Source: Candidatus Doudnabacteria bacterium (GTDB lineage Bacteria > Patescibacteriota > Doudnabacteria > UBA920). From it: a DNA stretch of 64,000 bases. Below are positions 3,602 to 61,989 of this stretch, piece after piece. The position numbers and the translations under genes were made by a program. The stretch covers positions 840,717 to 904,716 of the forward strand of contig CAVYGQ010000001.1 of the NCBI GenBank assembly GCA_963768175.1, written 5' to 3'. Every line of letters starts with the position of its first letter. Position 1 is the stretch's first letter. The notes beneath the pieces were generated by a model. It had not been told where the DNA came from, searched no databases, and worked only from the letters and a program-made list of their open reading frames with translations.

Positions 3602-3612
3602 AAATAAGTAAT

Positions 3613-3666
3613 GTAGCGCGCCGATTTATCGGCAACTTGAGACAGCCCATAAATGGGCATGCTACG
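3613..3666. repeat. Compound palindromic intergenic repeat (copy 1 of 2; second copy at 55585-55637)
   Basis: GTAGCGCGCCGATTTATCGGCA...AGCCCATAAATGGGCA(T/C)GCTAC. Two inner palindromes, GCCGATTTATCGGC and GCCCATAAATGGGC, sit inside a GTAGCG/CGCTAC outer stem. Both copies carry identical 22-nt and 16-nt blocks. Confidence 0.8.
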
Positions 3667-11377: not shown

Positions 11378-12154
11378 CTATTGGTGTTTCAAAAACGGTT
11401 TTAATATTGGCGCGTATAAATCTTTTTTCGGCGGAATAACCAATTTGTGATATAAATCCTTTTTGGTAAACTTAACAAATTTCGCCCCTCTTAGCACCAC
11501 CACCGGCGTTTGCTCGCCGCCTTCGCCCATTATCAGCGCTCCCAAGTCCGCCAGCGTGTCCACCAAATTGCGCTGGGTGTATTTTAATTTGCGTTTAAAA
11601 ATATCTTTTTGTCCGCGGTAATCAAACAGTGGCTTTAACCCCCAAAAGCCGATGCTTACCCCTTGCGTTCCCCATCTTAGCGGCGTGGTGCGGCTGTCCA
11701 CGGCCACGGCCGCCAGTTTTTTTGTGCCAAATTTTGTTTGGTATCTTTTGACAATTTGTTTAAGTAATAAATTAACATTCTTCGGCCAAAGAATAAAATA
11801 ACCATTGCCGTTGCTTTCATCTATGCCGGCCGAAGGTATAAGCGTGTAGTCTTTAATGGTCAAAATAATTTCCGAATCGCCAATCATGTAAGCCGGCAAG
11901 CTAAAATCGGCTTCTTTTTTTACAAGCTGGTGTTTTTGGTTGTAGCGTGCCGATTTATCCGCCGTCGCTGAAGCTTTGGCGGACAAGTCGGCCTTCTCGA
12001 TTTTCACGCATCTGCCCTGATGAATCGCCAAAATCTTGGAAGCAATCAACAAAACATCGCCTTCTTTAAGCTTAGGCAGGCGTTTGTCCAGCTCTTGCAA
12101 AATGTCGTCCTTTGGCGGCAGGAACTTGCGGGTTTTTATGGGAATGAATTGCAT
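11378..12154 (-). CDS. CofE-like (F420-0:gamma-glutamyl ligase family) protein
   Basis: IPSAGIDESN and LLIASKILAIHQG regions resemble the F420_ligase domain. The family assignment is tentative. Confidence 0.45.
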   Translation of the reverse strand: MQFIPIKTRKFLPPKDDILQELDKRLPKLKEGDVLLIASKILAIHQGRCVKIEKADLSAKASATADKSARYNQKHQLVKKEADFSLPAYMIGDSEIILTIKDYTLIPSAGIDESNGNGYFILWPKNVNLLLKQIVKRYQTKFGTKKLAAVAVDSRTTPLRWGTQGVSIGFWGLKPLFDYRGQKDIFKRKLKYTQRNLVDTLADLGALIMGEGGEQTPVVVLRGAKFVKFTKKDLYHKLVIPPKKDLYAPILKPFLKHQ

Positions 12155-13192: not shown

Positions 13193-13219
13193 CACTAAGC
13201 ACTTAGCACTAATCACTAA
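13193..13219. repeat. Heptamer tandem repeat (CACTAAG/CACTTAG)n, the reverse complement of (GTGCTTA)n at 61898-61936
   Basis: cactaagcacttagcactaatcactaa lies immediately 3' of gyrA. Confidence 0.7.
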
Positions 13220-13220
13220 T

Positions 13221-15686
13221 TTAAATTATCGTCGCACTCGCCACTTTATCTCCCTCATCCAGCCTCATTACCCTTACGCCTTGGGTGGCGCGGCCTAATG
13301 TGGAAACTTTGTTCAGTGGCGTGCGGATGGTTTGGCCGGATTTGGAAATTATGACCAAGTCGTGCTCTTCACTGTTGTTTAAAATATGCATGCTGACAAT
13401 TTTCCCGGTCTTGGGCGTAACTTTTACGGTTTTAATGCCGCTGCCGCCGCGCTTTTGCACTTTATAATACGACGCTTCGGTTTTTTTACCCAAACCGTTT
13501 TCCGTAACCACCAGAACTTCCAGAGTTTTTACATCCACGCTTTTGCGGATAATATCCATGCTGATAATCTTGTCGTCTTTTTTCAGGCGCATGCCGGTAA
13601 CGCCGCTGGCGTTTCGGCCCATGGCCCGGACGTCCTTCTCGCTAAAGCGGATGGCTTGGCCGTTTTCCGTGGACAGCATAATTTGGTCTTCGCCACTGGA
13701 GGTTTCCACCCACTTTAATTCATCGGCGCCTTTTAGGGAAATAGCTATCATGCCGCTGCGCCGTACTTTACTGAATTCGTCGCGGCTGGTTTTTTTAATC
13801 AGTCCGTTTTTGGTGGCCATAACCAGGAATTTGGCGTTGTCTTTTTTGGAAAAAGTAAGCACGGCTTGCGAAGTCTCGCCGCTTTGCAGCTGCAGGAAAT
13901 TCACCAAAGCCTGGCCTTTGGAAACGCGCGTGCCCTCGGGTAGCTCGTAAACTTTGGTCTGGAATACCCGTCCTTTGTTGGTGAAAAAGAGAATATCGTC
14001 GTGGGTATTGGAAGAAATAAGCTTTTCCACCACGTCTTCTTCTTTTAAGGTTTGGCCGATCACGCCTTTGCCGCCGCGGCTTTGGGTTTTGTAGGTGTCC
14101 GGCGCCAGGCGCTTGACATAGCCGGATTTGGTAATGGTAATAATTACGTTACTTTCCGGAATCAGATCTTCGGCAGAGAAGCTTCCAATGGCATTTTTTA
14201 TTACTTGCGTCCGGCGTTCGTCGCCAAAGCGAGACTTCATATCTTCCACCTCACTTCTAATAATTCCCAAAATTTTCTTCTTGGATTGCAAAATACCTTC
14301 CAATTCTTCTATTAAATTCTTTTTTTCTTTTAATTCGTCGTCAATTTTTTTACGCTCCAGGCCGGCCAAAGTTTGCAGGCGCATTTCCAAAATCGCGTCC
14401 GCCTGGATGTCCGTGAGCTTGAATTTTTTGATTAAATTGACTTTGGCTTCTTCCTTGGTGGGTGATTTTTTGATGGTGTTTATAACCTCATCAATACGGT
14501 CCAGGGCTTTTTTTAAGCCTTCCAGAATGTGGGCGCGTTCTTTGGCCTTTTTGAGTTCAAATTCCGTGCGTTTGCGCACCACAATTTCGCGGTGCTGCAA
14601 ATATTTTTCCAGGACAGTTTTTAAATTCAGGACATGGGGCTCAATGCCGTCTACCAAAGCCAGCATGTTCATGTGGAAAGATTCCTGGAGTTGGGTGTAG
14701 GAAAACAGCTGGTTTAAAATTTTGTTGGGCAACCCGTCTTTTTTTATGTCTATGACAATGCGCACGCCGTCTTTGTCGCTTTCGTCGCGTACGTCGCGGA
14801 TGCCTTCTATTTTTTTATCGCGGACCAGTTCGGCAATTTTTTCAAGTAAGGTGGCTTTGTTCACGCGGTAAGGAATCTCGTGGACCAAAATTTGGTAAGC
14901 GCCGGATTTGCTTTCTGTAATTTCCGTTTTGGCGCGCATCACAATACTGCCTTTGCCCGTGGCATAGGCGTTCTTAATGGCCGCGATGTCGTAAATTATG
15001 CCGCCGGTGGGGAAGTCCGGTCCCTTAACAAATTCCATTAGGTCTTCGGTAGTGGCTTCCGGGTCGTCAATTAGTTTAACAATGGCATCGCAAATTTCGC
15101 CTAAGTTGTGGGGCGGGATGTCTGTGGCCATGCCTACGGCAATGCCGAGCGTACCGTTAAGCAACAGATTAGGCAGTTTGCCCGGCAAGACCACTGGCTC
15201 TTTGCGTGTGGCGTCATAGTTGTCGCGCCAGTCCACGGTTTCTTTATCCAAGTCTACCAACAATTCTTCGGCCAAAGCGGACATGCGGGCTTCGGTGTAA
15301 CGCATGGCCGCGGCGCCGTCGCCGTCCATGGAGCCAAAGTTCCCCTGTCCGTCTATTAGCGGATAGCGCATGGCAAACAGCTGGGCCATATGGACCATGG
15401 AGTCGTAAACCGCAATATCGCCGTGGGGATGGTACTTGCCCAACACGTCTCCGACTACGGCCGCGGATTTGCGGAATTTGACGTTGTGGCGCAGTCCCAG
15501 TTCGTGCATCACGTATAAAATGCGCCTGTGCACGGGCTTTAAGCCGTCGCGGACATCCGGCAGGGCGCGGCTGACAATTACGCTCATGGCGTAATCCAAA
15601 TACGATTCCTGCATTTCCGTCTGGATGTCGCGCTGCTTGATTTCCCCGATGTCGGTGCTAAGTTCTGCTTTGGAATCTTTAGGCAT
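13221..15686 (-). CDS. gyrA: DNA gyrase subunit A
   Basis: [27 protein letters not shown] motif with C-terminal beta-pinwheel repeats. The start is refined to the ATG at 15684-15686; the track start at 15701 is a TTG. Confidence 0.93.
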
Positions 15687-15692
15687 AAAGGT

Positions 15693-15770
15693 AATGAACA
15701 AAAATTAAAAAAATGACACAAATGAGCAAAAATGAACTGTGGTAATTTCCGTCATTTTTATTATTTTTTA
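15693..15770. repeat. AT-rich repeat AATGA(A)CAAAAATTAAAAAAATGACA with an inverted TGTCATTTTTATT arm (copy 1 of 4)
   Basis: Other copies are at 19073-19165, 42272-42368 and 54402-54440. Confidence 0.75.
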
Positions 15771-18891: not shown

Positions 18892-19072
18892 CCCCTTTTT
18901 ATCCGTCTTTGGAGATTTGGTTCAAAGGACGGAGCTTTTGTTTCTTTAAGTTTTAATTTCCGCAAAGACCTGCGCGGATAACCCTTTAATGCCCCGATAC
19001 AGCCAAGGCTAAGAGTCACCTCTAGTATACTGTTTAAGCCAGAAATTGCAAATCGGTTATCCCCCAGAGAGG

Positions 19073-19165
19073 AAATGACAAAAATGAACAAAAATTAAAA
19101 AATGACAAAAGTTATTGCAGTAGTATTTTTGTCATTTTTATTATTTATTTAATTTTTGTCATTAT
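19073..19165. repeat. AT-rich TGACAAAAAT repeat element (copy 2)
   Basis: aaatgacaaaaatgaacaaaaattaaaaaatgacaaaag...tttttgtcatttttatt. Confidence 0.75.
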
Positions 19166-21904: not shown

Positions 21905-22459
21905 TTAGAGTATCTGATGATTTTTTGACAAACTTAAACCATGCGATAACAACCAGGCCTCAACCTCTTTAGCTATTTTTTCGCTCATCCAATAACCCCT
22001 GGAAAGAGCAGCAATATCGGTTTTGGTAAGATCTTCAATAGTTTGAATGTTTGATCGTTTTGCCGTGGTATAAAAAGAGTTCGTGGCTCTAGTTCTTGAA
22101 AGCTTAATTATTGTCACTGGTTGTTTTAACAATTCTTGCTTAATATGTATCTCATTTTCTGCTATACGTTCTGCTTCCTTGTCTAATAAAGGTTTAAGTT
22201 TCCTAATCTCCGGATTAGTTTTTTCGTTTCGAGAAAGATCGCGAATAGGTTTTTCAATTTCAGCCATGGTTTCAGCTGTAATTGGATCTTCCACTTGGTT
22301 TATTCTTCTCTCTATTTCTTCGGAGCGGCGTTGAGTATTTTCAGGATTCACGAAATACCCTTTCTTATTATCATTCCCGCGAAAGCGGAAATTAGATTCC
22401 CGATCAGCTTTGGAATGACATAATGATAATAAATTATGGAATAAACCTAAAATTCTCAA
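21905..22459 (-). CDS. Hypothetical protein whose C-terminus resembles an RNA polymerase alpha-CTD-like HhH domain
   Basis: The C-terminal segment NIQTIEDLTKTDIAALSRGYWMSEKIAKEVEAWLLSHGLSL resembles an alpha-CTD. Confidence 0.4.
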   Translation of the reverse strand: MRILGLFHNLLSLCHSKADRESNFRFRGNDNKKGYFVNPENTQRRSEEIERRINQVEDPITAETMAEIEKPIRDLSRNEKTNPEIRKLKPLLDKEAERIAENEIHIKQELLKQPVTIIKLSRTRATNSFYTTAKRSNIQTIEDLTKTDIAALSRGYWMSEKIAKEVEAWLLSHGLSLSKNHQIL

Positions 22460-23924
22460 ACTGCCAAACGTCCGCGGCCGGTTTGCTGGCCGGGTTTTCT
22501 TTGAAGTAGATTTTACGATTCTTTAGGGGCGTCCAGTCAGACGGCGTGGAAATAAAGTCGCCGAGATAAGGTTTTGCAATATCCAGCACAAAATCGTGCG
22601 GCAAGTCGTCAGGCAGGCAAATACCTTTTTTCGGATTTTCAAACATCCATAGTACGGCGGCAATTACGCCTAGCGCGACCTGTAAAGTGGTGGCATTTTG
22701 GCCAGGTGCCAGCCTCCGGGCTTCCTGTATGCTTAAATCGCTCCCTGTCCACCAAGAATTATACCGATGCCCCATCAGTAGCGCGCCTAAAATGTCCGCC
22801 CCGGAAGTAATCTCATCTTCCAAAATTCTTATCTTGGACTGCATTTCGTAATTCCTGCCGCGAAGTTCGCATAAAGAAGATAGTGTTTCGTGGCACGGCA
22901 TATACGCGTAATGCACTGTCGGGCGGTAAACTGCCCTATCTCCATCCCAAACTGTTAACCTGTCGGATAACCCAAATGCTTCGCCGTGGCGAATGACCAT
23001 GCCCACAATTTCTTCGTTGGGAATCCATGACCTTACCCAGGTATTAATTCCCATTTGGGAGAGCATAATCTGATTTTTTGGCCCGTAAGGCGGAATATTA
23101 GCCAAGTCCGGTAGCCTTTGTTCGTGTGTGCCCCAACCCATCTCGGCCGGCGCGGTTCCTTCTTCCCGCAAGCCTTCCACGCTCCAGGTTCCTACAAATT
23201 CATCAACTTCTTTTGGGCGATTGGTAATTTGCGTGTCGCGCTCGCTGCAGTGGATTACTTTGATTCCCAATTTTTGTCCGAGCAAATTGAATTTGAGGTT
23301 TTTAATATAATTTTCCAGTTCTTCCCTGTCTTTGCCAGCCACTTTTTTATCTGCGATTGTTTTATTGCCGATATCAATCAATCCTTGTTTGACAAAATGG
23401 GAGATCAAACCGGGGTTTGCGCCATGGTCCACGACTGCCGTAGTGGCGTCTTTCCAGTCTTTGGACATGTCGTGCAGTTTCATTTGGCGCCAGTAAAGCG
23501 ATTTTTCAAATGGGCTGTCAGTAAATAATCCCTTAATGGAATCCCAGATTTCAACCGAAGTATTTACATACAAAACATTATGGTCGTGGCACCAGCCGAT
23601 AATATCATTAGCACCAATATTCCATGCCAAATCTATAATCAGGCCGCCCTTGTCTGTGTATTTGGCCAACTCCGGGCCTAGGTTTTCCGGCGTAATCCTG
23701 TTGCGTACAAATTTGATGCCCTTGTCCGTGAATTTTTTTAAAGCCGCTGCTTTGTCTTCAAAATCCATTACCGTGACGTTTTTTGGGTCAACCTCAATTT
23801 TTTCCAGCAGAATCGGCAGGGTGCACTGCGACACCGCGCCATAACCGATAATCAAAATTTTGCGGTCAAACTTTTTTTTTCCGCCGGAGGCGGATCCGCC
23901 TTTAGCGGACATACGTTTTTCCAT
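22434..23924 (-). CDS. hss: Homospermidine synthase / saccharopine-dehydrogenase-family enzyme
   Basis: NAD-binding N-terminus (ILIIGYGAVSQCTLPILLEK) and 496 aa. An in-frame AKGGSASGG cassette sits near the N-terminus. Confidence 0.55.
   Translation of the reverse strand: MEKRMSAKGGSASGGKKKFDRKILIIGYGAVSQCTLPILLEKIEVDPKNVTVMDFEDKAAALKKFTDKGIKFVRNRITPENLGPELAKYTDKGGLIIDLAWNIGANDIIGWCHDHNVLYVNTSVEIWDSIKGLFTDSPFEKSLYWRQMKLHDMSKDWKDATTAVVDHGANPGLISHFVKQGLIDIGNKTIADKKVAGKDREELENYIKNLKFNLLGQKLGIKVIHCSERDTQITNRPKEVDEFVGTWSVEGLREEGTAPAEMGWGTHEQRLPDLANIPPYGPKNQIMLSQMGINTWVRSWIPNEEIVGMVIRHGEAFGLSDRLTVWDGDRAVYRPTVHYAYMPCHETLSSLCELRGRNYEMQSKIRILEDEITSGADILGALLMGHRYNSWWTGSDLSIQEARRLAPGQNATTLQVALGVIAAVLWMFENPKKGICLPDDLPHDFVLDIAKPYLGDFISTPSDWTPLKNRKIYFKENPASKPAADVWQFENFRFIP
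23880..23903. repeat. 24-nt palindromic cassette AAAGGCGGATCCGCCTCCGGCGGA (in minus orientation) in frame in hss
   Basis: Identical 24-mers occur at 44773-44796 (murA) and 53990-54013 (murF). Each encodes KGGSASGG. Confidence 0.85.
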
Positions 23925-24247: not shown

Positions 24248-24359
24248 CTTCGCTAAAGCTACGAAGTGCGAGCAACTTAGTTGGTATGCTCATTTTAATA
24301 GTTAACTGTAAATTTTAGAAGCGAAGAAGTGCCCTACGTAGCCTTGGCGAAGTAGGGCA
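24248..24359. repeat. Inverted repeat CTTCTTCGC/GCGAAGAAG plus hairpin GCCCTAC-GTAGCCTTGGCGAAG-TAGGGC (conserved-loop REP-like motif)
   Basis: Loop motif CGTAGC(C/T)TT(G/A)GCGAAG occurs 5 times in the window: at 24248, 24338, 35448, 51493 and 61948. Confidence 0.7.
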
Positions 24360-32440: not shown

Positions 32441-32548
32441 GACGTCATTCCGAGCGCCTGCAATATCGCGCGAGGAATCTCTTATTGGCAGTTCGTTATT
32501 TAAGAGATCCTTCACCCTTCGGATGCACTCGGGGTTCAGGATGACGCC
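32441..32548. repeat. Palindromic element of the GGCGTCATYCTGA...TCAGGATGACGCC family (copy A, intergenic, degenerate left end)
   Basis: It shares the GAGATCCTTCACCCTTCGGATGCACTCGGGGTTCAGGATGACGCC right half with copies at 43990, 54177 and 57344. Confidence 0.8.
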
Positions 32549-32618
32549 GCTAATTTGGATGTTTGAGCCTTGAAAAATGTCAGTACTTGGGGTATAATCT
32601 ATAGGCAAATTTGATAAT

Positions 32619-35205: not shown

Positions 35206-35691
35206 TTATTTTTCCTCGTGTATTTTACGTATAACTTCGTCTATATGCTGCACATATCTCGGGCTAGTGTCTAGATGGAAGCTTATTCGGGGAATGACTT
35301 TGGTGGCAAAGTGCTTGTTAACTTCGCCCTGGAGGTCGTAAATGTTTTTTCCCAAAAATGTTAAGATTTTATAGTCCAAAGATAGAGCAGTCTGAGATTT
35401 TTTATCAGCCTGCGACAAACTTTTTTTCCCTCTCCCTTCTTGCCCGCCGTAGCCTTGGCGAAGGCGGGTGGGAGAGGGTGCCCCAAGCCCGTCTTGGGGC
35501 GGGTGAGGGTCTGGGTTAAAAATAGAAATCCAAATTTTGGCGTACTTCATATCTTTGCTGGTTTCCACTTTGGTTATGGTCACCAGGCCTTTTTGCCAAT
35601 CCAAAAATTTATGCAAAACCGGCCCCAATTCGTGCTGGATTAAGGAGTTTACCTTAGCTATGCGGTTGGTGTCTTTTTTTACCGGCTTCAT
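35206..35691 (-). CDS. rbfA: Ribosome-binding factor A with an in-frame insertion of about 40 aa
   Basis: RIAKVNSLIQHELGPVL and the C-terminal KH-like part match RbfA. The middle segment NPDPHPPQDGLGAPSPTRLRQGYGGQEGRGKK is encoded by a GC-rich hairpin element. Confidence 0.75.
   Translation of the reverse strand: MKPVKKDTNRIAKVNSLIQHELGPVLHKFLDWQKGLVTITKVETSKDMKYAKIWISIFNPDPHPPQDGLGAPSPTRLRQGYGGQEGRGKKSLSQADKKSQTALSLDYKILTFLGKNIYDLQGEVNKHFATKVIPRISFHLDTSPRYVQHIDEVIRKIHEEK
35427..35516. repeat. REP-like hairpin element in frame in rbfA (conserved loop GTAGCCTTGGCGAAG)
   Basis: cccgcc-GTAGCCTTGGCGAAG-gcggg, the flanking cctctccc/gggagagg stem and a second hairpin gccccaag...cttggggc. Confidence 0.7.
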
Positions 35692-41423: not shown

Positions 41424-42266
41424 TTAGAATGTACGGTTTTTTCCCACAATCATCTTCAGCCTCTGAGGGATTATTTCCACGGTGCTGGGGAATTTGGCAA
41501 CAACGCGGCCGAGCATGGTCAAATTGGTGCCGCGCGGCTCCAAAAATTCAATTTTTTTGCATTTAATGACTGTGGTATTGGGCACCTTTTCCAGACAGCC
41601 TTCTGAAATAATGTTGCGGTATTTTAAAACCTGCATTTTATTAAGGTGCTCCATTATGAGCAGATCTAAATTGCCGTCCGTGGGGTTGGCGATTTTTTCG
41701 CTTTGGCAGGAAGTGGAACGGATGTTGGCCACCAGTCCGCCGAGCCCGTTTATGGTCACGTTGTAAGAATCATCCACCCGGATGGTAAAGCCTTTTGCCT
41801 CCGAAGAAAGCAGCTTCAGGCTTTGCCACAAAGAGGCGGTTTTGATGTTGTGGGACATTACGCCAAATTCCAGAAAGCTGATAAAATAATTGCCGGAAAT
41901 TTTGGCCAGGTCAATTTTTTCTATGCGCCTGGCGGCAATGGTTTTTACGCCCAAAAAGACGTTTTCAATGCCTAAAATTTTTGCCAAATTTGAATTTTCA
42001 TCAAACGGGATAAAACCCAAAGTAAAATCCCGCCCCTTAAGCGCCGCCAGCATTAAGTTAAAGGTATCGTCACTGCCGCAGGCCACCAAAGTATTGGTGC
42101 CTCTTTGGCTGGCCGTATCCACCAAATCCTGCACGCTGCGCAAGGGAGTTACCCTTGAAGCCTCGCCGGAAACTTTAAATTCGGCCAAAAGCCCGGAAAG
42201 CTCGGTCTGGAGCTTCTCAAATTTTTCCATGGGCAAATTGTGCTGGTCGAGGATATAGTAGTGCAC
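41424..42266 (-). CDS. Diacylglycerol-kinase catalytic-domain lipid kinase (YegS-like)
   Basis: The VACGSDDTFNLMLAAL region resembles the GGDGT motif. The start is a GTG. Confidence 0.6.
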   Translation of the reverse strand: MHYYILDQHNLPMEKFEKLQTELSGLLAEFKVSGEASRVTPLRSVQDLVDTASQRGTNTLVACGSDDTFNLMLAALKGRDFTLGFIPFDENSNLAKILGIENVFLGVKTIAARRIEKIDLAKISGNYFISFLEFGVMSHNIKTASLWQSLKLLSSEAKGFTIRVDDSYNVTINGLGGLVANIRSTSCQSEKIANPTDGNLDLLIMEHLNKMQVLKYRNIISEGCLEKVPNTTVIKCKKIEFLEPRGTNLTMLGRVVAKFPSTVEIIPQRLKMIVGKNRTF

Positions 42267-42271
42267 AAAAG

Positions 42272-42368
42272 AAATGACAAAAATTAAAAAAATAATAAAA
42301 ATGACAAAAATAAATGGGCCTATAATTTTTGCTCATTTATGCCAATTTTGTCATTTTTGCTCATTACC
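42272..42368. repeat. AT-rich TGACAAAAAT repeat element (copy 3)
   Basis: aaatgacaaaaattaaaaaaataataaaaatgacaaaaat...ttttgtcatttttgctcatt. Confidence 0.75.
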
Positions 42369-42369
42369 T

Positions 42370-42788
42370 TTACTCTTCTGGTTCAATAAGGGGTTCGGCT
42401 TTTTCCACGGGAGTTTTCTTGCCGCTGCCCCCGCTTACTCCGTTGCCGCCCATAACGCACTTGCCGGAAAATTGGGCACCGTCTTCCACCCTAAAAACCG
42501 TGCAGACAATATCCCCTAAAACTTTTGCCGTACTCTGTAATATCAAATGCCCGGATATTTTTAAGTTACCCTGTATTTCCCCGCCGACCACGGCATTGCC
42601 CGCCAAAATGTCTGCCGCAATTTTGGCCCCGGGACAACAAATACGCTCTGGCTAGTTTTGACTTTGCCGCTTACCTGGCCTTCTATTTTTATGTTGCCTT
42701 CGCTGTTTAAATCTCCTTGAATTTTAACGCTGGGGCCGACTACGGTTTCGGCCGGGCTGTTTAGGTTCTCGTCTAAGGTTTTGTCCAT
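42370..42788 (-). pseudogene. Bactofilin (DUF583), split by a 1-nt frameshift in a ggccccggg run
   Basis: The N-terminal ORF (42561-42788) ends ...KVKTSQSVFVVPGPKL. The C-terminal ORF (42370-42606) continues in another frame with ...PGAKIAADILAGNAVVGGEIQGNLKISG. Joined, they give a canonical bactofilin. Confidence 0.6.
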
Positions 42789-43989: not shown

Positions 43990-44075
43990 GGCGTCATCCT
44001 GAGCGTAGCGAAGGATCTCATTAAAGAAAGAGATTCTTCACCCTTCGGATGCTACTTCAGGTTCAGAATGACGCC
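43990..44075. repeat. Palindromic element GGCGTCATCCTGAGC...TTCAGAATGACGCC (copy B, intergenic, upstream of murA)
   Basis: Terminal inverted repeats plus an internal palindrome, GAAGGATCTC..GAGATTCTTC. Confidence 0.8.
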
Positions 44076-44094
44076 TTAGGAAAGAAAATATTAT

Positions 44095-45648
44095 ATGCAA
44101 AACCTTATAAAGGATCAGCAGAAAATCGGCCAGTTTATAGCCGAAGTCCGTGAGCTTAAAGGCTTTACCCAAAGCCAGTTTGCCAAAAGCTTAAAAACCA
44201 GCCAGTCAGCCGTAGCCAGGATGGAAAGCGGCCAGCAAAACTTAACTACAGAGATGCTGGCTAAGATTAGCGCAGTTTTGAACCATGAAATTATTACGTT
44301 GGCCGACAAGTCGGTAAATTTTAAAATAGAAGGCGGGCGGAAACTTTCGGGAAGGGTCGCGGTTAATACTTCCAAGAATGCCGCGGTGGCGCTGTTGTGC
44401 GCTTCTTTGCTTAATGAAGGTAAAACTATTTTTAAGAATGTGCCTAAAATAGAGGAAGTCTACCGGGTAATTGAAGTTTTGGTCAGTCTTGGCGTCTCGG
44501 TAAAATGGCAGGGCGCGGATGTGGAAATTTTGCCGGGCAAAAAAATTACCATAAATAAAATAGACAAAGAAGCCGCGGTTAAAACCAGAAGCGTTCTTAT
44601 GCTGCTTGGGCCTTTGGCTCATATTCTTCCCGCTTTTAACCTGCCTTTGGCCGGCGGCTGCAAACTGGGCGAACGGACCGTGAGGCCGCATTTGTTTGCT
44701 TTGGAAAAGCTTGGAGTTAAAATTCAGACCCATCATGACCATTACGCCGTAAGCTCGGCTAAAGCTCCCGCCAAAGGCGGATCCGCCTCCGGCGGAAAAA
44801 CCGCGGAGGTAGTGCTTTACGAAATGGGTGACACAGTGACGGAAAACACGCTTATGGCCGCGGCAAAAATAAACGGCGTGACCACCATCAAGCTGGCCTC
44901 TTCCAATTACATGGTGCAGGATTTATGTCATTTTTTGCAAAGTTTGGGCGTAAAAATTGAAGGCGTGGGTACCTCCACCTTAAAAGTGCATGGCAAACCG
45001 CACATTAACCAGCGTGTGGTCTTTTATTTAAGCGAAGACCCCATAGAAGCCATGCTGTTTTTGTCTTTGGCTGTCACCACAAATTCTTCCATAACCGTTG
45101 AGCGCTGCCCCATAGACTTTTTGGAGCTGGAACTGTTGAAATTGGAAAAGATGGGGTTTAAGTACCGGATTATTAAGCGTTATAAAAGCCATAACGGTAT
45201 TACCAATTTGGCAGATATTAAGACTTTCCCGTCTAAATTAATCGCGCTGGAAGAAAAAATCCACCCGTTGACGTCCTCGGCCGGAATTAATATAGATAAC
45301 CTGCCGTTTTTTGTGCCCATTGCCACCCAGGCCAAAGGCACCACGCTGATTCACGACTGGGTTTACGAAAATCGCGCTATTTACTATTTGGAATTAAATA
45401 AGCTGCGGGCCAATATAATTTTGGCCGACGCCCACCGCGTTTACATAGACGGCCCGACCGAACTTAAAGCAGGCGAAGTCATTTGTCCCCCTGCCCTGCG
45501 CCCGGCCGCGATAATTCTAATTGCGATGTTAGCCGCCAAAGGCACCTCTATTCTCCGCAACGTTTATTCCATAAACCGCGGCTATGAGAATTTGGTGCAG
45601 CGATTACAGAAGCTCGGAGCCAAGATCGAAATGATACATGGCATGTAA
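44095..45648 (+). CDS. murA: UDP-N-acetylglucosamine 1-carboxyvinyltransferase fused to an N-terminal XRE-type HTH domain
   Basis: Residues 1-65 form an HTH_3 domain (IGQFIAEVRELKGFTQSQFAKSLKTSQSAVARMESGQQNL). The MurA core follows (KLSGRVAVNTSKNAA...). An in-frame AKGGSASGG cassette is also present. Confidence 0.85.
   Translation: MQNLIKDQQKIGQFIAEVRELKGFTQSQFAKSLKTSQSAVARMESGQQNLTTEMLAKISAVLNHEIITLADKSVNFKIEGGRKLSGRVAVNTSKNAAVALLCASLLNEGKTIFKNVPKIEEVYRVIEVLVSLGVSVKWQGADVEILPGKKITINKIDKEAAVKTRSVLMLLGPLAHILPAFNLPLAGGCKLGERTVRPHLFALEKLGVKIQTHHDHYAVSSAKAPAKGGSASGGKTAEVVLYEMGDTVTENTLMAAAKINGVTTIKLASSNYMVQDLCHFLQSLGVKIEGVGTSTLKVHGKPHINQRVVFYLSEDPIEAMLFLSLAVTTNSSITVERCPIDFLELELLKLEKMGFKYRIIKRYKSHNGITNLADIKTFPSKLIALEEKIHPLTSSAGINIDNLPFFVPIATQAKGTTLIHDWVYENRAIYYLELNKLRANIILADAHRVYIDGPTELKAGEVICPPALRPAAIILIAMLAAKGTSILRNVYSINRGYENLVQRLQKLGAKIEMIHGM
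44773..44796. repeat. 24-nt palindromic cassette AAAGGCGGATCCGCCTCCGGCGGA in frame in murA
   Basis: Identical to the copies in hss and murF. Confidence 0.85.
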
Positions 45649-45713: not shown

Positions 45714-48209
45714 ATGGCGGAAACAAACAACAATTTGGGTTTATCATCAGCCGAAGCCGCTAGCAGATTAAGGCAGTACGGCTATAACGAAATTGCGGAA
45801 AGCAAAAGGCTATCCGGGCTTTTGGCTTTTTTGTTAAGGTTCCGCAATCCGCTGGTGCTGATTTTGGTCTTTGCGGCTACGATATCAGCTGTAACCGGGG
45901 ATCCCGTCAGTGCGCTGATTATCATCAGTATTGTACTGCTGTCCGTTATCTTAGATTTTTTTAATACCTACAAATCCCAAAAAGCCGCGGAAGAGCTGAT
46001 AGAAAAAGTGGAAATTACAGCCGAGGTATTGAGAGGCGGCATAGTGACTCCCCTGCCGCTGCGCTTGATTGTGCCCGGAGACGTGGTGGAACTTGAGGCC
46101 GGAGACGTAATTCCCGCAGACGGCAAAATTTTAAGCGCCAAAGATTTATTTTTGAACGAATCTTCGCTAACCGGCGAATCTTTTCCCGCGGAAAAGCAGG
46201 AAGGCTTGCCTATTTTTTTGGGAACCAACGTGGTTACCGGCACTGGCCGGATGCTGGTGGAAGTTACGGGTAAAAAAACCAAGTTCAGCAAAATCGCGGA
46301 AAGTCTGGAAGCGCCGGAAAGGCCTACGGATTTTGACCGCAGCATAAAAGATTTTAGCTACTTAATTATGAAGATAACTTTTGTCTTGGTTATCTTTATT
46401 TTTTTGGTTAACGCCATACTCAAAGGCAGCACTTATATTTTGGAGTTGTTTTTGTTTGCCGCGGCCTTGGCCGTGGGCTTGACGCCGGAGCTTTTGCCCA
46501 TGATTATTACGCTTAATTTATCCAAGGGCTCTTTGGCCATGTCCAAGCACGGCGTAATTGTAAAAAAACTATCGGCCATCCAAAACTTTGGCGCTATGGA
46601 TGTATTGTGCACCGATAAAACCGGCACGTTGACGGAAGACAGGATTGAACTGGTCAAGTACGTGGACGCCGAGGGCAAGCCGGATGAAAACATTTTTAAG
46701 TACGCTTACCTTTCCAGCAGTTTCCGCAGCGGCTTTAAGAATCCGCTGGATGTGGCTGTAAAAAATTTCAAGATGTTTGATATTGGCGGCAAATCCGCCT
46801 TCGCTGAAGCTTCGGCGGATGACTCGCTATCAAATATATTAATGGGAGTCAAAAAAATAGACGAAATCCCCTTTGATTACCGGCGCAAGCGCGATTCCAT
46901 TATCGTGAAAACTTCTCAAGGCTATGAGCTTATTTCCAAAGGCGCGCCTGAAGAAATGTTTGAGACCTGCAGTTTTTATAGCCAGATGGGTAAAAAACTC
47001 ACCCCTACTATAGCCAAAAAATTGGAAAAAGAATATCAGGCTTTAAGTGCCGACGGCTTTAGGGTTTTGGCTGTGGCCTGCAAGACGCTTCCGGAAAAAA
47101 CGGCATACGAAAAAGAAGACGAAAGGGATTTGGTTATATTGGGCTTTATTGCTTTTTTGGATCCGCCCAAAAAGAGCGTGACCGAAACCCTGCGGACTTT
47201 GGAAAATTATGGCATCGCCATAAAAGTTATTACCGGCGATAACGAAATTATTACCAAAAAAATCGCTCAGGAAATTAATTTGCCCGTTTTGGGCAGTTTG
47301 ACCGGGGCAGAGATAGAAAAATTGACCGATCGGCAGCTAGCAATAGATGCGGAGAAAACTACAGTTTTTGCGCGCGTTACGCCGGAACAAAAAAAGCGCA
47401 TTATTTTGGCTTTGCAAAAAAATAAACACGTAGTCGGGTTTATGGGCGATGGTATAAATGACGCGCCGTCGCTTAAGACCGCGGACGTGGGCATTTCGGT
47501 TAACAACGCGGTGGACGTGGCCAAGGAATCGGCCGATTTAATTTTATTGCACAAGAGTTTAAAGGAGCTGGCTTTAGGCGTTATCCAGGGCCGCAAAACT
47601 TTTGCCAATACTTTAAAGTATTTAATGATGGGTTTGAGCTCAAATTTCGGCAATATGTTTTCCATGGCCGGAGCATCCATGTTTTTTCCGTTTTTGCCCA
47701 TGCTGCCGGCCCAGATTTTGCTAAATAATCTGCTGTATGACGGCTCGCAGTTTGTCATTCCGCTGGACAATGTGGATGAGCAGGACATTGCCAGGCCACG
47801 GCAAATGAAGATCCATTTTTTGCGCAGATTTATGGTGGTTTTTGGCATTTTAAGTTCGGTGTTTGATTTTGTGACGTTTTTAGTGTTAACTTTTGTCTTC
47901 CATTATACCAACCACTACTTCCAGACCGGCTGGTTTATTACCTCTTTTGCCACGCAAATTTTAGTGGTATTTGTTATCCGCACCAAGCAGGTGCCGTTTT
48001 TCAAAAGCAAGCCGGCTAAGTCCTTAGTTATTTCCGTGTTTAGTTTTTTGGCTTTAGCCCTGCTTTTGGCCTTAGGCCCGATAAAAAATATCTTCGGCTT
48101 TGCCCCGCTTTCGCTGGCCATGGTTTTAAGCGCTTTCCTTATTACCCTGCTCTATTTAATCTGTATTGAGTTCGCCAAAAGCAAATTTTACCAATATGTT
48201 TCGGAATAA
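45714..48209 (+). CDS. Cation-transporting P-type ATPase (MgtA-like)
   Basis: DKTGTLT, TGDN and GDGINDAPSL motifs, 831 aa. Confidence 0.8.
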   Translation: MAETNNNLGLSSAEAASRLRQYGYNEIAESKRLSGLLAFLLRFRNPLVLILVFAATISAVTGDPVSALIIISIVLLSVILDFFNTYKSQKAAEELIEKVEITAEVLRGGIVTPLPLRLIVPGDVVELEAGDVIPADGKILSAKDLFLNESSLTGESFPAEKQEGLPIFLGTNVVTGTGRMLVEVTGKKTKFSKIAESLEAPERPTDFDRSIKDFSYLIMKITFVLVIFIFLVNAILKGSTYILELFLFAAALAVGLTPELLPMIITLNLSKGSLAMSKHGVIVKKLSAIQNFGAMDVLCTDKTGTLTEDRIELVKYVDAEGKPDENIFKYAYLSSSFRSGFKNPLDVAVKNFKMFDIGGKSAFAEASADDSLSNILMGVKKIDEIPFDYRRKRDSIIVKTSQGYELISKGAPEEMFETCSFYSQMGKKLTPTIAKKLEKEYQALSADGFRVLAVACKTLPEKTAYEKEDERDLVILGFIAFLDPPKKSVTETLRTLENYGIAIKVITGDNEIITKKIAQEINLPVLGSLTGAEIEKLTDRQLAIDAEKTTVFARVTPEQKKRIILALQKNKHVVGFMGDGINDAPSLKTADVGISVNNAVDVAKESADLILLHKSLKELALGVIQGRKTFANTLKYLMMGLSSNFGNMFSMAGASMFFPFLPMLPAQILLNNLLYDGSQFVIPLDNVDEQDIARPRQMKIHFLRRFMVVFGILSSVFDFVTFLVLTFVFHYTNHYFQTGWFITSFATQILVVFVIRTKQVPFFKSKPAKSLVISVFSFLALALLLALGPIKNIFGFAPLSLAMVLSAFLITLLYLICIEFAKSKFYQYVSE

Positions 48210-52819: not shown

Positions 52820-54403
52820 ATGGACTTGTTTGTTCCAAAATTTATCCAATACCAATTATACCTGCTCCAGCTGGAAAATTATGAGCTGGGAAGGTATTGG
52901 AAATTGCTTATAAAAAAGGGAGTTTTCCCTAAAAAAAGCCAACCTTTGCGCAAAGAGCTGGTCTGGACCGCTAAAGCTCGGGCGTTAATGCTTATGGCTG
53001 TGGCCCTGCATGGTTTGGTGGTCGTTTTGGTTGGGCTTATGGTTTTAACTTTAAAGCCGGGCATAGATAACTTTTTTACCACAATAATTTTGGCGGTATT
53101 AATTTTGTTGCCGTTTTATTTTGTTTTTTTCAGTCTGGCTTTGTTAATCCTTAAGCCTTTGGACACTCTGGTAAAACAAAGCCTTGTGGCTAAAGCCAAA
53201 ACCAAGCTGGCTGGATTGCCTGATGTCAAGATAATCGGCGTTGCCGGCAGTTACGGCAAAACTACAATGAAGGAAGTGTTGAGGGCAGTGCTAAGTGCTA
53301 AGTTCAAAGTGCTAAGTACGCCGGAGAGCATAAACACGCCGGTGGGGATTGCCAGATGGATTATAAATAAAATAACGGACGAAACCCAAATTCTGATTGT
53401 AGAAATGGGGGAGCATTATGAGAAAGACGTTAAAGAAATTTGCGATATAGCAAAACCCGACATCGCGGTGGTTACCGGCATTAACGAATCCCACTTGGAG
53501 CGGATGAAAAAAATGGATACGGTTATTGCCACAATTTTTGAAATCGTGAGTAACGCCCAGCCCGGCGCGGCTATTGTGCTAAACGGCGATGATCGCAGGG
53601 TTATGGAGAATTATAAAAAATTTGTCTGGCCAGACCATCGGCTGGAATTTTTTACAAAAAATCCCGGCAGTGAAAAGTGTAAAGTGAAAAGTGCAAAGTT
53701 TAACACAGACAAGCTGTGTTGGAATTTAGAGATTGATGATCTTGGCTCGGTAGAACTGGATTTACTTGGGGAATACGCGTTGGGCGACGTTGACGCGGCC
53801 GTGAAAATTGCCAAAAGTTTGGGTATGAGCAATGAGCAAATTATCGCGGGGATCAAAAATATCAAGCCCGTGGAGCACAGGCTCCAGCCGATAAAGTCTG
53901 CCACGAATGTTTTGGTAATAGACGACAGTTACAACGGCAATTCCGACGGAGTAGTGGAAGCCATAAAAGTTTTGTCGCGCTTTTCCGCCAAAGGCGGATC
54001 CGCCTCCGGCGGAGAAGGCCGCCGGAAGATTTATATCACTCCCGGGCTGGTGGAAATAGGCAAAAGTTCCGCCGATATTCATCGCAGTATTGGCAAACAG
54101 CTGGCGGACGTTGCGGATGTGGTTATTTTGATAAAAAATAGCGCGACGGGGTTTATTGAAGAGGGAATCCTCTTAGGGCGTCATTCTGACCCTGAGCGGA
54201 GCGAAGGGGAAGAATCTCAAACTAAGGATAAAGAGATCCTTCGTCCCTCGGATGCACTCGGGGCTCAGGATGACGCCGCTGGTAAGAGACCAAGAATTAT
54301 CTGGTTTAATTCCGCCTTGGAAGCGTACGCGGGGCTAAAAGACATTTTAAAACCCGGGGATGTAATTTTGTTTCAGAACGATTGGGGAGACCAGTATTTG
54401 TAA
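52820..54403 (+). CDS. murF: UDP-N-acetylmuramoyl-tripeptide--D-alanyl-D-alanine ligase with an N-terminal TM extension and two in-frame repeat insertions
   Basis: Mur ligase ATP-binding motif GVAGSYGKTTMKE. Two in-frame inserts are present: the KGGSASGG cassette at 53990 and a palindromic element of about 100 nt at 54177-54277. Confidence 0.85.
   Translation: MDLFVPKFIQYQLYLLQLENYELGRYWKLLIKKGVFPKKSQPLRKELVWTAKARALMLMAVALHGLVVVLVGLMVLTLKPGIDNFFTTIILAVLILLPFYFVFFSLALLILKPLDTLVKQSLVAKAKTKLAGLPDVKIIGVAGSYGKTTMKEVLRAVLSAKFKVLSTPESINTPVGIARWIINKITDETQILIVEMGEHYEKDVKEICDIAKPDIAVVTGINESHLERMKKMDTVIATIFEIVSNAQPGAAIVLNGDDRRVMENYKKFVWPDHRLEFFTKNPGSEKCKVKSAKFNTDKLCWNLEIDDLGSVELDLLGEYALGDVDAAVKIAKSLGMSNEQIIAGIKNIKPVEHRLQPIKSATNVLVIDDSYNGNSDGVVEAIKVLSRFSAKGGSASGGEGRRKIYITPGLVEIGKSSADIHRSIGKQLADVADVVILIKNSATGFIEEGILLGRHSDPERSEGEESQTKDKEILRPSDALGAQDDAAGKRPRIIWFNSALEAYAGLKDILKPGDVILFQNDWGDQYL
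53990..54013. repeat. 24-nt palindromic cassette AAAGGCGGATCCGCCTCCGGCGGA in frame in murF
   Basis: Identical to the copies in hss and murA. Confidence 0.85.
54177..54277. repeat. Palindromic element GGCGTCATTCTGA...CTCAGGATGACGCC (copy C), inserted in frame near the murF C-terminus
   Basis: It encodes GRHSDPERSEGEESQTKDKEILRPSDALGAQDDAA and keeps the reading frame. Confidence 0.85.
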
Positions 54404-54440
54404 TGACAAAAATTAAAAAAATGACATAATTGACAAAAAT
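54402..54440. repeat. AT-rich TGACAAAAAT repeat (copy 4, short) between murF and alr
   Basis: taatgacaaaaattaaaaaaatgacataattgacaaaaatt. Confidence 0.7.
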
Positions 54441-54442
54441 TC

Positions 54443-55588
54443 ATGGGGACAATCGGAAAAATTTTTAATAAGATAGTATCACCAAAAATTAACTATCAAC
54501 CGCTTATAGAAGTGAGGATTTTTAAAGATGCCTTGCTGCATAATTTACACGTTTTCCAAGAAAAATATCCGAGCCTTGAGTTTGCCCCAGTGATAAAAAG
54601 CAACGCTTACGGACACGGTATGGTACAGGTGGCAAAAATTTTTGACAGCAAACCCAAAGCTTTTTTTATGGTGGACTCATTTTATGAGGCTTTGGTGTTA
54701 AGGCGCGCCGGAATTAAATCTAAAATTTTAATGCTGGGTTTTAACCGGATTGAGCAATTGATTAACCCCAAATTAAAAAATTGTTCCTCGGCGATTATTG
54801 ATTTCTCCACTTTGCAGGAAGTGGTGGCAAAATTAAAAAAGCCGGCGATCTTTCATCTCAAGATTGATACGGGTATGCACCGGCAGGGACTGTGGGGGGA
54901 AGAAGTAAATAAGGCAATTGCGTTAATCAAGTCTAACCCAAACTTTAATTTGGAGGGCTTATGCAGCCATTTGGCGGATGCCGACGGGGCTGGGCAGGAT
55001 TTTACCAAACAGCAGATTAGACTGTGGAATCAAGTCGTGGAAAAATTCAAACAAAACTTTCCCTCCATTAAATATTTCCATTTAGCCAATACCGCCGGGA
55101 CTTTTTATACCAACGAAATTACGGCCAACGTGGCGCGCATCGGCATCGGGCTGTATGGGTTAAATAATTCACAGTTTGAAAAGTTGGACTTAAAACCGGC
55201 TTTGGAAATGGCCTCTATTGTCACTTCCGTAAAAACTATTCCGGCTGGGGAGAAAATCGGTTACAATATAACTTATGAGGCGCCGAAAGAAACAAAAATC
55301 GCCACCGTACCGGCGGGATTCAACGAAGGCGTGGACCGCAGGCTTTCAAATAAAGGATTTTACCAAATTAAGGGGCAAAACTGTCCTTTGCGGGGCAAGG
55401 TGAGCATGAACATAAGCAGCGTGGAAGTAACCAGTGTCCCTGGAGTTAAAGTGGGGGATGAGGTGGTAATTATAAGCCGAAATCCGAGCGATAAAAATTC
55501 GGTGGAAAATATTGCCAAAATGTGCGACACGGTACATTACGAAATTCTGGTTCATATACCTTCTATATTAAGAAGAATAATAGTGTAG
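54443..55588 (+). CDS. alr: Alanine racemase
   Basis: PLP-lysine motif VIKSNAYGHG, 381 aa. Confidence 0.88.
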   Translation: MGTIGKIFNKIVSPKINYQPLIEVRIFKDALLHNLHVFQEKYPSLEFAPVIKSNAYGHGMVQVAKIFDSKPKAFFMVDSFYEALVLRRAGIKSKILMLGFNRIEQLINPKLKNCSSAIIDFSTLQEVVAKLKKPAIFHLKIDTGMHRQGLWGEEVNKAIALIKSNPNFNLEGLCSHLADADGAGQDFTKQQIRLWNQVVEKFKQNFPSIKYFHLANTAGTFYTNEITANVARIGIGLYGLNNSQFEKLDLKPALEMASIVTSVKTIPAGEKIGYNITYEAPKETKIATVPAGFNEGVDRRLSNKGFYQIKGQNCPLRGKVSMNISSVEVTSVPGVKVGDEVVIISRNPSDKNSVENIAKMCDTVHYEILVHIPSILRRIIV

Positions 55589-55637
55589 CGCGCCGATTTA
55601 TCGGCATCCTAAGATAGCCCATAAATGGGCACGCTAC
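55585..55637. repeat. Compound palindromic intergenic repeat (copy 2 of 2)
   Basis: GTAGCGCGCCGATTTATCGGCA...AGCCCATAAATGGGCACGCTAC. Confidence 0.8.
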
Positions 55638-61900: not shown

Positions 61901-61936
61901 TGCTTAGTGCTTAGTGCTTAGTGCTTAGTGCTTAGA
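61898..61936. repeat. Tandem heptamer (GTGCTTA)x5 immediately after the hsp20 stop
   Basis: tagtgcttagtgcttagtgcttagtgcttagtgcttag. It carries TAG stops in all three frames. Confidence 0.85.
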
Positions 61937-61947
61937 GAGTAGTGAAT

Positions 61948-61971
61948 CCGCCTTCGCTAAAGCTACGGCGG
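61948..61971. repeat. REP-like hairpin CCGCC-TTCGCTAAAGCTAC-GGCGG (loop motif in reverse orientation)
   Basis: The loop is the reverse complement of CGTAGCYTTRGCGAA. Confidence 0.65.
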
Positions 61972-61989
61972 ACAAGTAGGATAAAACAC

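Follow-up and report, generated by a model that had tools for sequence, protein, structure and literature searches.

A 30-nt palindromic sequence made of two abutting hairpins lies in frame in three unrelated genes (murF, murA, and a homospermidine synthase-like gene, hereafter Hss-like) within a 64,000-nt stretch of the Candidatus Doudnabacteria bacterium contig CAVYGQ010000001.1 (positions 840,717 to 904,716 of the forward strand; "the window" denotes this whole stretch). Taken together with its copies in other bacteria, the sequence is probably a 30-bp non-autonomous, selfish insertion element that is mobilized in trans and resembles repetitive extragenic palindromic (REP) sequences and Rickettsia palindromic elements (RPEs). 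Its host proteins would tolerate the element rather than profit from it.

The original prediction described an identical 24-nt cassette, AAAGGCGGATCCGCCTCCGGCGGA, encoding KGGSASGG in these three genes. Exact searching and Pfam assignments agreed with this description: the 24-mer occurs at 23880–23903 (− strand), 44773–44796 (+), and 53990–54013 (+), each time inside a long open reading frame (ORF) and in frame as KGGSASGG. No further copy was found in the 64-kb window, even with up to three mismatches allowed, and 100 dinucleotide-preserving shuffles of the window yielded no match (0 expected vs. 3 observed). The repeated core is real, but the cassette had been drawn too short. Alignment of the three copies extended the similarity to ~33 nt, past the 24-mer, and this alignment and the ortholog comparison define an inserted GC-rich unit of 30 nt, (TCCGCC-NNN-GGCGGA)x2, with the 24-mer as its core. 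The copies and their host genes are as follows.

53984 to 54013, + strand: element copy 3 (TCCGCC-AAA-GGCGGA / TCCGCC-TCC-GGCGGA) in murF, encoding SAKGGSASGG, amino acids (aa) 389–398, between ...VLSRF and (E/x)(G/N)RRK.
53981 to 53983, + strand: 5′ flank TTT of copy 3, a Phe codon kept in all MurF orthologs; insertion context, outside the insert.
44767 to 44796, + strand: element copy 2 in murA, first base mutated (CCCGCC for TCCGCC), encoding PAKGGSASGG.
23880 to 23909, − strand: element copy 1 in the Hss-like gene, with one stem mutation (TCCGCT, a G-T wobble); SAKGGSASGG, then KKKFDRKILIIGYG.
52820 to 54403, + strand: murF, a host gene, with Pfam Mur_ligase_M and Mur_ligase_C.
44095 to 45648, + strand: murA, a host gene, with Pfam HTH_3 and the EPSP_synthase fold.
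22434 to 23912, − strand (ORF 22434 to 23924): Hss-like (saccharopine-dehydrogenase-type) host gene, with Pfam Sacchrp_dh_NADP and Sacchrp_dh_C.

In the window the unit reads TCCGCC-AAA-GGCGGA-TCCGCC-TCC-GGCGGA, in which two 15-nt hairpin units lie directly side by side, each built of a 6-bp stem closed by a 3-nt loop, and jointly form a near-palindrome centered on GGA|TCC. The core GGCGGATCCGCC is a perfect palindrome, as had been pointed out; nevertheless, the structure that is conserved is that of two separate 6-bp hairpins. The element folds into two hairpins as single-stranded DNA (−12 to −13 kcal/mol, z ~ −3.5) and into one long hairpin as RNA (−19 to −22 kcal/mol). GTDB species representatives were searched using a pattern with fixed stems and free loops, which returned at least 120 loci. 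The element loci also contain seven variant double hairpins with the same geometry and compensatory stem changes (~0.1 by chance, an estimate with no shuffle control), and their stems include CCCTCC/GGAGGG, TCAGCC/GGCTGA, TCACCC/GGGTGA, CCAACC/GGTTGG, and CTCGCC/GGCGAG. Several of the variant stem pairs cannot form a single long hairpin, which supports two independent hairpins. A 45-nt trimer had no match in the metagenome collection, where the dimer gave at least 120 loci; this argues that the 30-nt dimer is a discrete unit and not an arbitrary slice of an array, and a variable-length hairpin array was ruled out on this result. Isolated 15-nt monomers (TCCGCC-NNN-GGCGGA) were also noted in element loci (L010 4339, L087 6366, L117 611, L005 542, and others), at an estimated frequency far above chance; some are in frame as SAKGG, and single monomers may also insert. 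Two conventional identities for the 30-nt element were discarded. The usual setting of the element is a T-run on one side and an A-run on the other, and an intrinsic terminator was rejected because this polarity, T-run upstream and A-run downstream on both strands, is wrong. A known RNA family was excluded by an Rfam search of the window, which recovered 12 tRNAs only and no family at the element.

Comparison of filled and empty sites showed that the element is gained as one discrete block of 30 bp and leaves no target-site duplication. In an alignment of 60 MurF sequences, the window protein is longer by 10 residues, SAKGGSASGG, which separate the conserved ...VLSRF from xNRRK. P0002, at 75% identity the closest ortholog, has an empty site, CGT TTT|AAA AAC, where the window reads CGC TTT[30 nt]GAA GGC, and P0002 set against P0008 likewise gave a clean 30-nt difference with no flank duplicated. 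The near-isogenic P0003 and P0004 are one clean 30-nt block apart at a second MurF site (TAT|GAG vs. TTT[30]AAG), and the boundaries of this block are unambiguous because the insert begins with T and ends with A. Short target-site duplications had been suggested as a possible mark of insertion; no base is duplicated in the filled relative to the empty murF sites in either pair (P0002/window and P0003/P0004). The three flanking bases on each side constitute the target and are present in the empty sites. In MurA, 40 orthologs (P0121–P0160; 80–90% identical) read SSAKL|KPAE and the window protein reads SSAKA[PAKGGSASGG]KTAE. Hss-like orthologs begin MKKKF.../MTKAKF..., and the window gene begins M[SAKGGSASGG]KKKF. 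According to the gene call of the source contig (P0241), the start of the Hss-like gene is the ATG at 23912–23910, and the element directly follows this ATG rather than lying at codon 7 as initially proposed. Both the MurA and Hss-like sites are empty in a relative ~90% identical in protein. Clean presence/absence was therefore seen in all three genes, with orthologs 75–90% identical in protein lacking exactly these 30 nt (10 aa), and there was no copy in ~42 kb of sequence that shares synteny with parts of the window and comes from close relatives (~90% protein identity). The initial preference for insertion of a DNA element over protein convergence was borne out by these exact empty sites and by the invariance of the insert codons.

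Carriers identified in protein searches (P0004, P0008 with two copies, P0011, P0050, and P0060) all read TCC GCC nnn GGC GGA TCC GCC/GCT nnn GGC GGA; in the same carriers, the conserved codons next to the insert (for Ser, Arg, Phe, Thr, and Asn) show free synonymous variation. Invariant insert codons beside variable synonymous sites indicate conservation at the DNA level and not at the protein level; a peptide conserved with different codons, raised earlier as a sign of protein-level conservation, was not seen in any of these carriers. MurF contains two recurrent insertion hot spots in other lineages, at ~aa 280 and ~aa 388. A neighbor-joining tree was built from 70 MurF sequences; every carrier was a singleton in it, both at site 1 (window, P0008, P0050, and P0060) and at site 2 (P0004, P0008, P0011, and P0015), and parsimony gave at least four changes at each of the two sites. 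Independent same-site copies were also found in MurA (P0167; 75% identical) and in the Hss-like gene (P0280; a degenerate copy). These comparisons show that the same permissive codons were repeatedly targeted in different lineages. The loops of the copies carry a further pattern: all three window copies have AAA/TCC loops, both MurF copies of P0008 have GGA/TCC, and a third copy on the P0008 contig has AAA/TTT. Loops were identical in 34% of within-genome pairs vs. 4.8% of between-genome pairs. Repeated insertion from a putative resident master copy into a few permissive sites fits these sequences well, and a single ancient insertion would fit them poorly.

The 125 GTDB instances listed gave the consensus TTYT-CCGCC-RRA-GGCGGA-TCCGCC-TYY-GGCGG-ARAA, and the insertion target consensus is TTY|RAA, a T-run|A-run junction that includes ATG|AAA gene starts. 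An ATG is located directly 5′ of 8 of the 123 metagenome copies listed, as for window copy 1. T is found at −3 in 53/68 coding and 37/45 non-coding copies, and A at +3 in 61/68 coding and 37/45 non-coding copies, making the TTY|RAA flanks equally conserved in both classes. Since the two flanks are conserved together, the context is symmetric and not one-sided. Among the copies listed for the GTDB loci and the window, 82 of 127 are in ORFs of at least 150 aa, 69 of these 82 in the SAxGGSAxGG frame; the corresponding values for the metagenome contigs are 93 of the 123 listed copies and 76 of 93. The proportion of long-ORF copies in this frame (~83%) was compared with a target-only model based on the count of in-frame TTYRAA hexamers in long ORFs, which predicted 46% (p ~1.5e-12); few long-ORF copies use the other frames (FRQRRIRLRRK, FPPEADPPLAE). 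Target preference alone was ruled out by this comparison as the origin of the frame bias. Frame selection of this kind points to translation of the insert and purging of disruptive frames, and the element is thus probably translated, with its frame probably under purifying selection.

Persisting genic copies overwhelmingly encode Ser-Ala-x-Gly-Gly-Ser-Ala-x-Gly-Gly, a flexible linker in surface loops or N-termini. In the AlphaFold2 model of window MurF (mean predicted local distance difference test score, pLDDT, 86.6), residues 389–398 form a loop between helix 375–386 and strand 403–407; pLDDT is <50 at residues 393–397, and the rest of the fold is confident. The expectation that a Gly/Ser linker would be structurally benign is consistent with this predicted low-confidence loop between a helix and a strand.

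The element is widespread. It was found in at least 120 GTDB loci, all of them metagenome-assembled genomes (MAGs) among the matches listed, and most listed carriers are Patescibacteria (candidate phyla radiation; CPR). Other carriers are labeled Omnitrophota, Kiritimatiellae, Verrucomicrobia, Lentisphaerae, Planctomycetes, Ignavibacteria, Bacteroidota, Chloroflexota, Margulisiibacteriota, Firestonebacteria, Auribacterota, Desulfotomaculaceae, and further groups, and the carrier contigs include sizes of 0.7–1.6 Mb. The metagenome collection contains at least 120 contigs with the element (123 copies among the matches listed). There were two matches in IMG/VR viral contigs, none in PLSDB plasmids, and none in 5,426 E. 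coli genomes, and the best match in INPHARED phages (86%) was at chance level; a phage or plasmid vector was ruled out on these results. No paper with the sequence, peptide, or description of the element was found in the published literature. The element appears to be undescribed, and the class of phenomenon itself is already known.

Mobilization would occur in trans, through an enzyme that reads the hairpin or cruciform structure. A structure-recognizing enzyme is proposed because compensatory stem changes preserve each hairpin in the variant copies, and the symmetric flanks suggest that it would be two-fold symmetric and act on duplex or cruciform DNA; an HUH-type single-strand transposase of the REP-associated tyrosine transposase (RAYT) kind would be a less likely agent. 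The cross-phylum range in co-occurring uncultured bacteria would reflect horizontal spread of the mobilizing machinery. A full-length parent, if one exists, would have the form TTY-TCCGCCNNNGGCGGA ... TCCGCCNNNGGCGGA-RAA, with 0.5–3 kb between the arms.

Several observations weigh against such an element. A Pfam scan of the 60 window ORFs found housekeeping genes and no transposase, HUH, or recombinase domain. Clustering of ORFs from 124 loci revealed no gene family that recurs beside the copies, only housekeeping families, each in at most six loci, and the clustering and the Pfam scan together argue against a linked mobilization gene in the window and these loci. No insertion sequence (IS) elements were found in the window or in the locus neighborhoods. 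As for a full-length parent with single hairpins at its ends, isolated monomers were seen in the loci, none of them flanking a candidate gene. There is neither a target-site duplication nor the asymmetric, one-sided target expected under known DDE or HUH mechanisms. The case for transposition is built on sequence comparison, and that for translation on the frame bias. Recurrence at the same site could in principle go back to a single ancient insertion that was precisely lost many times, or relatives could have exchanged copies by gene conversion or horizontal transfer. Finally, REP- or MITE-like elements (MITE, miniature inverted-repeat transposable element) are normally lineage-specific; a 30-mer that stays near-identical from phylum to phylum is unusual among them and could instead point to a conserved host function.

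Such a function would make the double hairpin or cruciform a host-beneficial cis element at which some widely conserved factor binds or carries out processing; selection would keep the element, with its genic position secondary. Examples include a signal for RNA stability or translation pausing, a nucleoid or replication-pause site, and a methylation/restriction-related site around GGATCC. This explanation is unlikely, even though it would accommodate the near-identity of the sequence across many phyla, the compensatory changes that maintain the hairpins, the very stable RNA folds, and the frequent position directly after start codons. Close relatives and sister sequences differ in presence/absence of the element, and most relatives would not lack, in these very genes, a site that the host required. 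The element sits in unrelated housekeeping genes that share no pathway, non-coding copies form mosaics alongside other hairpin repeats, much as in arrays of junk DNA, and no Rfam family matches. The recombination or restriction-modification site entertained in the original prediction found no support in this analysis.

Absence of a target-site duplication, a fixed discrete length (dimer abundant, trimer absent from the metagenome collection), the lack of a linked transposase among the 60 window ORFs and 124 loci, and the symmetric, blunt-looking TTY|RAA junction would all be expected of a templated repair scar. Here, a conserved pathway would write the 30-mer into breaks at T-run|A-run junctions from a fixed template and not from other genomic copies; the template could be a captured abundant small hairpin DNA (retron-like msDNA, or a plasmid or phage fragment) or could involve RNA-templated synthesis. 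We consider this less probable again than a host site. The loops are genome-specific and common to the copies of one genome, in keeping with resident copies or a master as the source; a genome-specific template would produce the same loop pattern. No template locus or reverse transcriptase was identified, and viral contigs gave only the two matches and plasmids none. It is highly improbable that proteins converged on a Gly/Ser linker or that the element is an artifact of assembly or adapters. The peptide does resemble engineered GGS linkers, the core holds a BamHI site as cloning linkers do, and the literature has the 12-mer only in cloning-paper primers. However, all copies use identical codons next to synonymous sites that vary, and non-coding copies have the same flanks. 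The copies come from hundreds of contigs and assemblies of many projects, some of 0.7–1.6 Mb, with variable loops, genome-specific variants, a strong frame bias, and site specificity. Codon identity and these many-project, variable-loop, frame-specific copies refute both convergence and the adapter artifact against which the original prediction had cautioned.

A bolder version of the insertion-element reading is tentative and, in our judgment, somewhat doubtful: the element could represent the smallest known discrete mobile DNA, a 30-bp two-hairpin "nano-element" in at least 10 phyla of subsurface and sediment bacteria, served by horizontally shared, structure-specific machinery that makes symmetric T-run|A-run cuts without target duplication and writes Gly/Ser/Ala linkers into essential proteins, at surface loops and N-termini. 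The same system could also act on the other GC-rich hairpin families that span phyla and were seen in these genes. If the insertion-element reading is correct, a 30-bp sequence without coding capacity of its own has been repeatedly inserted in essential genes (encoding MurA, MurF, IF-2-type GTPases, tRNA synthetases, and glycosyltransferases) across much of the uncultured bacterial tree, by an undescribed mechanism that duplicates no target, uses a symmetric AT site, and takes a substrate defined by its hairpins. For annotation and phylogenomics, such inserts make CPR proteins longer, give rise to spurious "low-complexity" regions, and shift start-codon calls. The copies also offer a natural experiment that maps where proteins tolerate linker insertions, and they may serve as strain-level markers in metagenomes because close relatives differ in copy presence/absence.

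Further features were noted in the host genes. The N-terminus of murA (44095–44300) is a fused XRE-type helix-turn-helix (HTH; PF01381), and the architecture of HTH and EPSP_synthase fold is found in all 120 best homologs. The N-terminus of murF (52820–53215) is a ~130-aa extension before the Mur ligase domains, with predicted long helices, that is kept among Patescibacteria homologs. murF also contains a second, unrelated GC-rich inverted-repeat insertion at 54197–54280 (aa 460–487; ...HSDPERSEGEES...KEILRPSDALGAQDD...), whose 3′ arm belongs to repeat family D6, also present at 32502–32551 and 44028–44077. The MurF C-terminal loop contains many different hairpin-derived peptides across orthologs and is disordered in the AlphaFold2 model.

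Other repeats are spread through the window. Family D5 (ATCCGCC-TTCGCTGAAGCTTC-GGCGGAT; 46793–46827, 11957–11991, and 61946–61980) has the same TCCGCC/GGCGGA stem as the 30-nt element, and its copy at 46793 is inside a P-type ATPase ORF (45714–48209), where it is read as KSAFAEASADD. An RbfA-like ORF (35206–35691, − strand), whose Pfam match covers the N-terminal half of the RBFA profile only (positions 1–53 of 105), contains a GC-rich hairpin insertion of family D12 at 35441–35468 (...PSPTRLRQGYGGQEGRG...); D12 is also found at 24330 and 51486, beside tRNA genes. The 57-nt intergenic repeat D11 (3609–3665 and 55581–55637) has GTAGC...GCTAC ends and two internal hairpins and is GTAG-tagged and REP-like, unlike the 30-nt element. 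A-rich intergenic repeats with 9-nt periodicity and TGACAAAAAT cores, often in inverted pairs, occur at 15686–15759, 19065–19163, 42264–42372, and 54393–54445, and may be promoter or operator motifs. A heptamer tandem repeat, (TGCTTAG)n, lies downstream of the Hsp20 gene (61904–61935), with an inverted copy ~48 kb away at 13193–13219. Outside the window, in Kiritimatiellae/Verrucomicrobia MAGs (L006 4588 and 6409, L054 7326, L003 4485, and L029 676), non-coding copies of the element are part of larger conserved mosaics, cataggaatttt[30 nt]acaatccg..., that adjoin other widespread GC-rich hairpin repeats and resemble bacterial interspersed mosaic elements (BIMEs).

RPEs, reportedly described by Ogata et al. 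in 2000, provide one comparison among known systems. They are palindromic repeats found in frame in unrelated, functional housekeeping genes and are seen as selfish DNA (PMC3733652). The element likewise is an in-frame palindrome in functional genes that adds a tolerated peptide and is missing from orthologs. However, RPE-1-type repeats are ~100–150 bp (30–50 aa) and confined to Rickettsia, whereas the element is 30 bp (10 aa) and present in many phyla; its sequence also appears to be different, and it repeatedly uses identical codons.

REPs, their dimers (REPINs), and BIMEs, with their RAYT transposases, were reviewed by Di Nocera et al. 2013, and some REP dimers are intragenic and encode 20–30 aa (PMC3733652). 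As a 30-nt double hairpin with three copies in 64 kb, the element is a short, GC-rich, multi-copy palindrome, and it shares with REPs the 20–40 nt GC-rich hairpins, inverted dimers, occasional intragenic location, mosaic intergenic arrays, and presumed mobilization in trans by a structure-specific enzyme. It differs in that its consensus has no GTAG or CGTC tag, its two hairpins abut with no spacer, and it is mostly intragenic, to judge by the proportion of listed copies in long ORFs, whereas REPs are mainly extragenic. No RAYT (Y1/HUH) gene was found among the 60 window ORFs, and none recurs as a neighbor in the 124 loci. REP families are normally lineage-specific; the element, in contrast, is common to many phyla.

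The cyanobacterial Nezha is a bacterial MITE that inserts in frame. Coxiella QMITEs are another example (PMC5896051). Like MITEs, the element is non-autonomous, based on inverted repeats, and able to extend ORFs; unlike MITEs, which are 70–300+ bp, have terminal inverted repeats from a recognizable IS, and generate target-site duplications, it is shorter and makes no such duplication, and no parent IS was found in the window or the locus neighborhoods. IS200/IS605 (HUH) elements and palindrome-associated transposable elements (PATEs), which insert 3′ of a specific tetra- or pentanucleotide on one strand, fit in having no duplication and hairpins at both ends, but the context here is symmetric rather than one-sided, with T at −3 in 86% of copies and A at +3 in 79%. 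Coding palindromes in Methanocaldococcus and the GC clusters of yeast mitochondria are GC-rich hairpin inserts in AT-rich coding sequence that is still translated, and in this they resemble the element. Coding palindromes of this type are also present in Nematomorpha mitochondria (PMC6649704). All of these occur in other hosts with other sequences, are much longer or lineage-restricted, and share no 30-bp double-hairpin unit with the element. Collectively, the element is best filed with palindromic selfish DNA tolerated in coding sequence, where it stands out in being minimal in size, inserting symmetrically and without duplication, returning to the same codons, and being conserved across phyla.

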